From Rickettsiales bacterium (ex Bugula neritina AB1) (GTDB taxonomy: Bacteria > Pseudomonadota > Alphaproteobacteria > CAJXXZ01 > UBA1459), in assembly GCA_001730065.1 (NCBI GenBank), contig MDLE01000006.1:4041-68040 (forward strand): a stretch of DNA of 64,000 nt. Direction: 5' to 3'. Every line of letters begins with the position of its first letter. Positions within the stretch are counted from its first letter, which is position 1. The notes beneath the pieces were generated by a model. That model was not told the origin of the DNA. It ran no database searches and saw only the letters and a program-made list of their open reading frames with translations. This document shows, in pieces, positions 8,330 to 10,249 of the stretch. The position numbers were made by a program, and so were the translations under genes.

Positions 8330-10249
8330 GTGATGAACGATAACATACAGCATAAAATAGGACGTGTAAGATCTCCTAGAGTTCAAATCACATATGACCT
8401 AGAAATGGATGGTGCCACCGTCAAAAAGGAATTACCTTGTGTTTTTGGTATAATAGGTGATTATTCAGGTGATCGTGAAGCAGAATCATTTGAAGATTAT
8501 AATGAACGTATTTTTGTTAATATAGATGGAGAAAATTTAAATTCCGTTTTAAAATCTTTTAAACCTAGATTAGAATTATCCATAAAAGATAAAGATACGG
8601 AAGATAACAAAGGTATTATATTACTTTTTGAAAATATGAAAGATTTCTATCCTTTAGAAATTGTAAAACGTGTGGATTTTTTAAATGAATTTTTTGAAAT
8701 AAAAAAATCTTTATCAGATTTACGTGTAAAGAGTGATATGAATCAAAAAATTAGTAAAGTTCTTGATAATTTTATAAATAATAAGGAAGAAGCAACTAAA
8801 ATTAAAACAGAAGCGGAAGCAGGAGAAGGAGAAAATCTAGAAAAAATATTTACGGATAATAATTTTGTTATAAATGATGATTACAAAGCTTATTACATCA
8901 AAATGATAAAAAACTATCTTGCATTTCTTGAAAAAGATACGGATAGTAGTAATCATATTGAAGTCATTAGTAAAGCAATTATTAAGTTAGAAGATGATAT
9001 TTCCTACTATTTAAATGAAATTTTACATCATCCAAAATTCCAAAAATTGGAAGGATCCTGGAGAGGTGTTGAATATTTAATGAAAAATCTTGAATTAAGT
9101 ACAAATCTTAAAGTACGTATTTTTAATGCAAATTTAGAGGAAATTTTTAATGATCTTACTACTTGTTTAGAATTTGATCAAAGTTATTTATTCAAAAAAA
9201 TTTATGAGGAAGAATATGGTACATTAGGAGGGTTACCTTACACTGCTATGATGATGGATAATAGTATTTCTCGTAAACAATCAGACATTATTTTACTAAA
9301 AAAAATTTCTGAAGTAATGGCGGCAGCTCATTGTCCATTATTTATGGGAACAGATCCTTCAATTTTTGATTTATCTTCTTTTAAGGATATTAATAAACCT
9401 ATAGATCTAAAAAAAGTATTTGAAAGTGAAGAGTTAGCGAGTTTAAGAAGTTTTAAATCTTCTGATGAATCTAAATATATTACACTACTATTACCACGTG
9501 TAATGGCACGTGTTCCTTATGGTTCAAAAACTATGAGTATACCAGATTTAAATTTTGAAGAATCTGTTACAGGATATAATGAAAATGAATATACATGGAT
9601 GAATCCTGCCTACGTATATCTTTGTAATGTAGGTCGTTCTTTTGCAAATTATAAATGGTTTACAAGTATATGCGGAGTAAACACAGGTGGTAAAGTAGAT
9701 AATTTACCTATACATATATATGAAACTAAAAACGGTGACAAAATAATGCAATGTCCTACAGAAATTTCTATTACTGATAGAAGAGAAAAGGAATTAGATG
9801 ATTTAGGTTTTGCAGCTTTATGTCATGCAAAAGGTGAAGCATATAGTGTTTTCTTTGGTGGTAAAAGTACTTATCAACCACCACTTTTTGATAAGGATTC
9901 CGCTAATGCTAATGCGGCTCTTTCCGCAAAAACACCTTATATATTATGTGCATCTCGTTTTGCACACTACGTAAAATGTATAATGCGTGATAAAATTGGA
10001 GAGTTTAATACTAAAGAAACAATTATTCAATATTTAAATAATTGGTTAACGGATTATATTCTTCTTAATAAAAATGGAAGTTATGAATCAAAATGTAAAT
10101 ATCCTTTGAGTGCTGGTAATGTAATAATTGATGATATACCAGGAAAACCAGGATATTACACGGGAACTGTATTTATAACACCTCATTTCCAAATGGAAGC
10201 AATAGAAATATCTATGCGTCTTGTAGCAGGAACATCTGCAAAAGCTTAA
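8330..10249 (+). CDS. tssBC: fused T6SS contractile sheath protein (TssB/VipA domain + TssC/VipB domain)
   Basis: The N-terminus carries the TssB signature [31 protein letters not shown]. A short EAEAGEGEN linker follows. The TssC body has [36 protein letters not shown] and [13 protein letters not shown]. It is one uninterrupted ORF. Confidence 0.85.
   Translation: [639 protein letters not shown]

Follow-up and report, generated by a model that had tools for sequence, protein, structure and literature searches.

Can the sheath of a type VI secretion system (T6SS) be built from one polypeptide in place of the two proteins TssB (VipA) and TssC (VipB)? The question is raised by an open reading frame (ORF) in a stretch of 64,000 nucleotides from the 177,484-bp contig MDLE01000006.1 of Rickettsiales bacterium (ex Bugula neritina AB1), hereafter the window, in which an earlier reading of the DNA without database searches (the sequence-only reading) recognised both proteins joined in a single frame. 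To our knowledge, the sheath of every T6SS that has been studied or solved consists of two chains, and the mechanistic and structural work has all been done on two-chain TssB/TssC, so that a joined pair departs from the textbook arrangement, as that reading had held. We find that both sheath halves are complete and lie in one frame, which makes this a genuine covalent TssB-TssC fusion. We also consider it quite probable that the ORF encodes a single-polypeptide sheath protomer that is functional, and that it is an inherited trait of a Holosporales-type T6SS lineage and not an accident of this genome.

A sheath gene with both halves in one frame

The ORF listing gives 8330..10249 on the forward strand as 639 unbroken codons opening with GTG-ATG, and the six peptide motifs quoted in the sequence-only reading were all found in its translation (6/6). 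The gene, which we call tssBC, most likely starts at the ATG at 8333 (638 amino acids, aa) and not at the GTG at 8330, because its homologues open with M-x-E-S-x-Q-H-K. Residue numbers below are counted from 8330, and the parts of the gene are as follows:

8333..10249, forward strand, stop included: tssBC, single-chain T6SS sheath subunit (ORF, hidden Markov model (HMM) matches, ratio of non-synonymous to synonymous substitution rates (dN/dS), AlphaFold, Foldseek)
8348..8818 (aa 7-163), forward strand: TssB/VipA part (TIGR03358, PF05591, PDB matches to TssB chains)
8783..8857 (aa ~152-176), forward strand: fusion junction (AlphaFold secondary structure, alignment, reading frame)
8831..10228 (aa 168-633), forward strand: TssC/VipB part including the C-terminal gpW/gp25-like domain (TIGR03355, PF05943, PF18945, 9n4v_A, Foldseek)

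Profile searches returned both of the proposed domains at full length in Pfam as well as in NCBIfam. In Pfam, T6SS_VipA (PF05591) covers aa 11-162 (expectation value, E, 3e-37; profile positions 2-154 of 155; 128 bits against a cut-off of 24), followed by VipB (PF05943) at aa 215-514 (E 3e-105) and VipB_2 (PF18945) at aa 525-633 (E 3e-37). The NCBIfam equivalog models divide the protein almost without remainder, TIGR03358 for TssB aligning with aa 7-163 (profile 1-158 of 160; 127 bits against a cut-off of 97) and TIGR03355 for TssC with aa 168-633 (profile 3-470 of 473; 526 bits against a cut-off of 271), with a gap of about four residues between the two matches. The TssB part contains the N-terminal arm motif RVQITYD and two C-terminal helices, and its sequence matches in the PDB are TssB chains (9n4v_B, 4uqz_B and 5n8n_A). 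It does not form a separate subunit of about 160-190 aa, and a stop codon is absent before the TssC part.

Among canonical two-gene systems, the nearest solved structure is the extended sheath-tube complex of Azotobacter vinelandii (9n4v); the TssC part is approximately 45% identical to chain 9n4v_A (E 1e-139), and the TssB part matches 9n4v_B with E 2e-28. The likeness to the canonical sheath is extensive, with both families matched from end to end, the same three-domain fold and the first TssC helix retained. The differences are that there is one polypeptide here instead of two, that TssC has no free N-terminus and that the gene, together with its downstream neighbour, is detached from the rest of the cluster. 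Compared with 9n4v, about 44 terminal residues (the TssB tail after residue 162 plus the first 19 residues of TssC) are replaced here by about seven.

An AlphaFold model of the fused protein, computed on a 30-sequence alignment, reached a predicted local distance difference test score (pLDDT) of 78.8 and a predicted template-modelling score (pTM) of 0.81. With Foldseek it matched TssC chains of five organisms (5n8n_B, 9n4v_A, 3j9g, 5urw and 5mxn) at template-modelling (TM) scores of 0.76-0.84, normalised to the target, with a probability of 1.00, and the TssB chain 5n8n_A at a TM score of 0.70. In the model, the junction consists of a helix (152-164), a G-E-G turn (165-167) and a second helix (168-176, NLEKIFTDN), the latter being the conserved first helix of TssC. 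With pLDDT values of 83-92 over aa 150-180, the junction is predicted to be confidently helical and not a floppy tether. It is of the shortest type in the alignment of fused proteins, and its DNA contains neither an in-frame stop nor a long homopolymer.

The LEKIF helix of the window protein aligns with LLDEII of Pseudomonas TssC, and it is probably the counterpart of the ClpV site in VipB of V. cholerae. ClpV binds VipB at residues 15-28 and threads its N-terminus; helices of both proteins, the two C-terminal ones from VipA and the three N-terminal ones from VipB, make up domain 3 of the sheath (Basler 2015, PMC4632598). The ends that are joined in tssBC would thus already be neighbours in domain 3, which would explain why the fusion is tolerated and why it recurs.

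The substitution pattern indicates that the gene is under purifying selection over its entire length, as dN/dS against the 80%-identical sister sequence L001 equals 0.32 in the TssB part, 0.26 in the junction and 0.13 in the TssC part. The window protein also retains all of the columns that are invariant across 30 aligned fused proteins (96 of 96).

Distribution and origins of the fusion

A search of a 5.8-billion-protein collection was made with the fused protein, and its 118 best complete matches were examined. Two truncated gene calls apart, every one of them (118/118) carries PF05591, PF05943 and PF18945 in a chain of 613-762 aa. The named sources are Holosporaceae metagenome-assembled genomes (MAGs), ‘bacterium NHP-B’ (Hepatobacter), unclassified Alphaproteobacteria and P. 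aeruginosa, and the relatives also include many AT-rich, reduced contigs. The label given to the fused proteins in the databases is merely ‘large subunit’, and no paper describing a natural TssB-TssC fusion was found among open-access papers and bioRxiv preprints; a preprint on a symbiont of rumen ciliates turned out to have no bearing on it. The fused sheath is therefore a real variant, visible in databases but undescribed.

A genome scan with one genome per species gave at least 80 loci, each of which was translated and searched with separate TssB and TssC HMMs; the genome of the window itself is not among the 80 listed. Coverage of residues 2-633 by tblastn had at first been taken as evidence of fusion; it was dropped, since this ORF and HMM check showed that 65 of the 80 listed loci have split tssB and tssC. 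The ranking of the 80 loci favours tssB and tssC lying in the same frame, so the frequency of that arrangement cannot be inferred from it; many of the split loci do have the two genes in frame with a single stop between them. Single-ORF fusions were found in Holosporaceae and Holosporales MAGs (L007, L016, L025), Caedibacter MAGs (L051, L053), alphaproteobacterial MAGs (L014, L024) and an uncultured bacterium (L083), as well as in a Woeseiaceae MAG (L012), a MAG labelled Thiotrichales (L017), Algicola (L043) and the isolate Thalassomonas sp. RHCl1 (L046).

When the TssC parts were arranged in a tree by neighbour joining, the window fell, with its sister, among AT-rich fused sequences (P0003-P0015, L002). 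This AT-rich group adjoins a large, almost entirely fused clade with Holosporaceae, Caedibacter, Hepatobacter and sequences from a 604-kb genome, and the fusions of Woeseiaceae, Algicola and Thalassomonas, together with that of P. aeruginosa PA99, arise separately among split relatives. The fusion is consequently no peculiarity of this genome, as the sequence-only reading had made it appear, but is common to a large Holosporales-type T6SS clade and recurs elsewhere; the window gene is one member of a sizeable lineage with a variant architecture of a well-known machine, and is not singular. A recurrent pattern of one tssBC ORF, a divergent Hcp of about 190-210 aa downstream and a pair detached from other T6SS genes is shared by the window, L001, L002, L004, L087, L007, L014, L016, L024, L051 and L053.

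The nearest cluster that is well known is the H3-T6SS of P. aeruginosa (HsiB3/HsiC3), which has the same gene order of sheath followed by hcp. In strain PA99 (CP042967.1; L005:10001-12052), hsiB3 and hsiC3 are fused within the H3-T6SS cluster into a protein of 683 aa. In other Pseudomonas a single stop separates tssB from an in-frame tssC, whereas PA99 lacks the stop and keeps the old start methionine of TssC inside the read-through spacer. Locus L006 and contigs of about two dozen data blocks have the same hsiB3-hsiC3 fusion. An assignment of the PA99 protein to the H4-T6SS was considered and rejected, since H4 has separate TssB4 and TssC4 and the neighbourhood is that of the H3 cluster. No mention of a fused H3 sheath in PA99 was found in the P. 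aeruginosa T6SS literature that we searched. The fusions of PA99, Woeseiaceae, Algicola and Thalassomonas resemble the window gene in being a single ORF with both domains followed by hcp. They differ from it in their complete canonical clusters with recognisable Hcp, TssE, TssF and TssG, in low-complexity read-through spacers of 40-60 aa and in their separate origins in the tree.

Contractile phage tails, R-type pyocins, extracellular contractile injection systems and T6SS subtype iv have single-chain sheaths. Like these sheaths, the fused protein provides one polypeptide per protomer, and the fusion restores the connectivity of the inner two sheath domains, which share the single-chain fold of pyocins and phages (PMC4632598). 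However, it differs from them in having arisen secondarily, by the joining of genuine TssB and TssC, and in retaining domain 3, which is specific to the T6SS. No Phage_sheath family was matched in the fused protein by Pfam, and its Foldseek matches to the phage-type sheaths Lin1278 and DSY3957 were weak (E 0.03-0.17, TM 0.23-0.35), Lin1278 giving E of about 0.03 with TM 0.25-0.34.

Two further kinds of sheath arrangement were seen among the scanned loci. In Deltaproteobacterial and Bacteriovoracaceae loci, a second ORF of about 510 aa lies 8-10 kb downstream of split tssB/tssC (L027:17738-19261, L032:19565-21106 and L048:20457-22028) and combines a weak TssB-like match (E 1e-9 to 1e-10) with a TssC-like match (E 1e-41 to 1e-52) in one chain; judged from these matches, it may be a compact, divergent fused paralogue of the sheath. 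Locus L075 (Holosporales MAG Jr-14may18-258) carries, at 8892-22007, a canonical split tssB/tssC and a second TssC paralogue in a full cluster (TssA, E, F, G, K, L and M), and it groups with Acetobacteraceae-type systems. The fused type is therefore not present in every genome labelled Holosporales, unless this contig is misbinned.

A probable divergent Hcp beside the sheath and the wider T6SS

The sequence-only reading overlooked a further ORF between the sheath gene and alr, which begins 21 nucleotides past the tssBC stop:

10271..10897, forward strand: probable divergent Hcp/TssD (inner tube), 208 aa, with an N-terminal extension (conserved position, profile-profile comparison)

This ORF has no Pfam or NCBIfam match, and its position is what first points to its identity. 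An ORF of about 190-210 aa stands here in every fused locus that we examined; in the gammaproteobacterial fused loci it is an ordinary Hcp, and in Caedibacter and L017 it stands between tssBC and tssE, just as hcp stands between tssC and tssE in canonical clusters. Iterative searches connect the whole series from the window-type ORF to Hcp, and an HMM built without the window clade scores the 208-aa protein at p = 3e-7. In hhalign comparisons, the window clade is linked to the Holosporales-type proteins at 96% (P 2e-9) and these in turn to canonical Hcp at 98.8% (P 1e-16), with 72% (P 3e-5) for the direct comparison of the window clade with canonical Hcp. We regard the protein as probably a very divergent Hcp with an N-terminal extension, on the strength of these profile comparisons and of its place in the gene order.

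Homologues close enough for a better model are few. A word-indexed search with the 208-aa ORF returned only the query itself, and an exhaustive HMMER search of 1.84 billion representative proteins gave four relatives, too few for a deep alignment; the AlphaFold model, made from the single sequence with no alignment, has a pLDDT of 33. The Pfam Hcp model (PF05638) misses all ten of the scanned relatives of this type (10/10), with scores such as 14.8 and, at best, 18.5 bits against a cut-off of 23.5. The T6SS of Holosporales is said to lack TssD, i.e., the inner tube (George et al., 10.1101/719211; 2025 review PMC11909080), and these published statements are probably explained by the failure of the Pfam model to detect this type of Hcp. 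The suggestion of the sequence-only reading that this could be a minimal contractile device is also weakened as far as a missing tube is concerned, as the adjacent ORF is probably a divergent Hcp.

The other genes named by that reading were all recovered with Pfam: the amino acid-binding protein gene (SBP_bac_3, 7288..8151, reverse strand) and alr (10991..12016, forward strand) flank the locus, and TLC (60108..61616), PPDK (31308..33590) and TrcR/DUF1013 (40709..41227) lie farther away in the window, whose content of guanine and cytosine (GC) is about 21%. Its statement that no other T6SS gene is recognisable in the 64 kb agrees with our scans, which were made with Pfam, NCBIfam, jackhmmer seeded with proteins of the PA99 cluster and hhalign against locus-derived profiles and were all empty; their sensitivity is low in so divergent a genome, where single-sequence hhalign gives even the Hcp candidate only 29%.

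What did not stand is the view that this context is odd. In the relatives, the tssBC-hcp pair is likewise isolated, among ribosomal, replication and cell-wall genes. A T6SS is reported to be conserved in almost all sequenced Holosporales, the smallest genomes included, and such symbionts reportedly keep most T6SS components (PMC11909080; 10.1101/719211). The remaining T6SS genes are accordingly expected elsewhere in the genome. The placement as Rickettsiales-like is not established either: the best named matches of LepA are spread evenly over Rickettsiales, Holosporales and Rhodospirillales at 46-48% identity, and the sheath itself groups with Holosporales-type sequences.

With the ‘modified’ T6SS of Holosporales and Holosporaceae living in protists (Cytomitobacter and Nesciobacter, for example; 10.1101/719211, PMC11909080), the window shares the setting of a reduced, AT-rich, tlc-bearing alphaproteobacterial endosymbiont. 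Further points of likeness are the grouping of the sheath with Holosporaceae, Caedibacter and Hepatobacter and the failure of standard tools to find the Hcp. Unlike our description, the two papers (10.1101/719211, PMC11909080) make no mention of a tssB-tssC fusion and give TssD as absent. The base composition differs as well, with about 21% GC here compared with 29.8% in one Holosporales species and 34.9% in the chromosome of S. namystus.

A working model and its alternatives

By analogy with canonical T6SS, the single-chain protomer would fold like the TssB:TssC heterodimer, with the join located in surface domain 3, where both ends already adjoin. We infer that such protomers would polymerise around a tube of the divergent Hcp encoded immediately downstream, and that their contraction would expel tube, spike and effectors, presumably into the cytoplasm or organelles of a eukaryotic host or into competing bacteria. 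The fusion could have originated directly by loss of the single stop between in-frame tssB and tssC, the read-through spacer being later trimmed to a few residues in this lineage. It would fix a 1:1 stoichiometry and save one translation start. As TssC has no free N-terminus in this arrangement, recycling of the ClpV type, if there is any, would have to engage an internal segment.

Several points weigh against a functional, inherited single-chain protomer. TssA, E, F, G, J, K, L and M, ClpV, VgrG and PAAR were not found among the window ORFs of at least 90 aa, VgrG and PAAR being covered by the Pfam and NCBIfam scans only, and a complete machine in this organism is thus assumed. The statistics of the Hcp assignment are moderate (p about 1e-7 to 1e-9 via intermediates, 72% directly), and the TssC-part tree is rough, with long branches. 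Finally, the source annotation contains a TssC-only model of 491 aa at 8774..10249, the first codon of which is ATA (Ile149 of the ORF).

This last point bears on the idea that there are really two genes, tssB and tssC, and that the stop or frameshift between them was lost in sequencing, assembly or annotation. The source record, with nothing but a 491-aa TssC-like product, would agree with it, and so would the closest relative, L001, a 2.6-kb contig from a public read set, which is called as 489 aa owing to an extra A in an A8 run (L001:58-65) that breaks the frame by one base. However, the 491-aa model requires an ATA start and omits the TssB domain, and annotation guided by homology seems to have produced it as an artefact. 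In L001 the frame is broken close to the N-terminal end of TssB, away from the junction, which is read through in frame; the extra A may stem from misassembly or be a genuine poly(A) frameshift such as transcriptional slippage tolerates in reduced symbionts. No stop separates the domains in the window, where a single frame carries the homology throughout, and many independent assemblies (L001, L002, L003, L004, L087, L007, L016, L051 and others), complete isolate genomes included, show this fusion too. From this comparison a hidden stop or frameshift at the junction appears very unlikely, and we give the two-gene artefact next to no credence. An almost equally small chance is left for a dual output, in which an internal start, e.g., Met137 (ATG 8738), would yield a separate TssC-sized product so that fused and free subunits are both made. 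This ATG is in frame and has a purine-rich, AAGAG-like motif upstream, and an internal start was preferred by a gene caller; but Met137 is not conserved in the alignment, a start there would cut through the C-terminal helices of TssB, and the junction is predicted as folded helices.

It also seems unlikely, although this deserves somewhat more consideration, that tssBC is a sheath gene which outlived its T6SS in a very reduced genome, whether it is a relic or has some non-secretory role. The empty surroundings in the 64 kb, the extreme AT-richness of an evidently reduced genome (~21% GC) and a dN/dS that is higher in the TssB part (0.32) than in TssC (0.13) would all fit a remnant. Against this, the ORF is intact at 638 codons and keeps all invariant columns of the fused proteins, each of the three segments has a dN/dS clearly below 1, and the partner Hcp-like gene is intact too and conserved in the sister lineage. 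In addition, where relatives have the pair in the same isolation, their lineages are reported to retain most of the T6SS components at other places in the genome.

We more tentatively suggest, as a possibility that is rather doubtful at present, that Holosporales-like endosymbionts have a distinct T6SS subtype of their own, inherited vertically, which is marked by the fused sheath, the highly divergent Hcp with its N-terminal extension and the detachment of the gene pair, and which differs from model systems in its recycling. If so, ClpV would thread an internal loop, or the sheath would be used only once or be recycled by another factor. The ‘loss of inner tube’ in these symbionts would in that case reflect a failure of detection, and persistence at about 21% GC would place the T6SS among the most indispensable host-interaction devices of these bacteria.

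For the T6SS in general, a natural single-chain sheath that is widespread in one lineage would mean that the split into two proteins is not required for assembly or contraction. Whether a free N-terminus of TssC is necessary for ClpV could be asked of it in a natural setting, and it is already available as a single-gene sheath to those who wish to engineer or label one. It also corrects the picture of the Holosporales T6SS, since pipelines label the fusion as ‘large subunit’ or truncate it and miss the adjacent Hcp; the lesson for the annotation of reduced symbionts is that TssB and TssD can be present yet hidden.

Some other features of the window were noted. Rfam returned transfer RNAs only, and scans of the window for promoters and terminators gave counts equal to those in shuffled sequence. 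At 41767..45284 (forward strand), two ORFs lie 2 nucleotides apart, the first of 767 aa and of no detectable family, the second a 403-aa AAA+ ATPase with generic similarity only, to CdvC, PAN and IteA-type ATPases; this AAA+ protein (44073..45284) was considered as ClpV and rejected, as its similarity is that of a generic P-loop protein. Next to alr, at 12029..13324 (reverse strand), lies a predicted membrane protein of 431 aa that matches no family and in which a unit of about 37 aa (NSTQNFTKNIF(K/E)NYVKKPTNLKNSSTSEIYVDD...) occurs three times in tandem. The most AT-rich part of the window is 56-60 kb (14-17% GC), where four consecutive ORFs of 130, 177, 186 and 397 aa (56334..59160, forward strand) have no family match at E<=0.001, the 397-aa ORF having a weak NCBIfam HAD-IIB match (E 0.007); these ORFs could be lineage-specific, effector genes or spurious.

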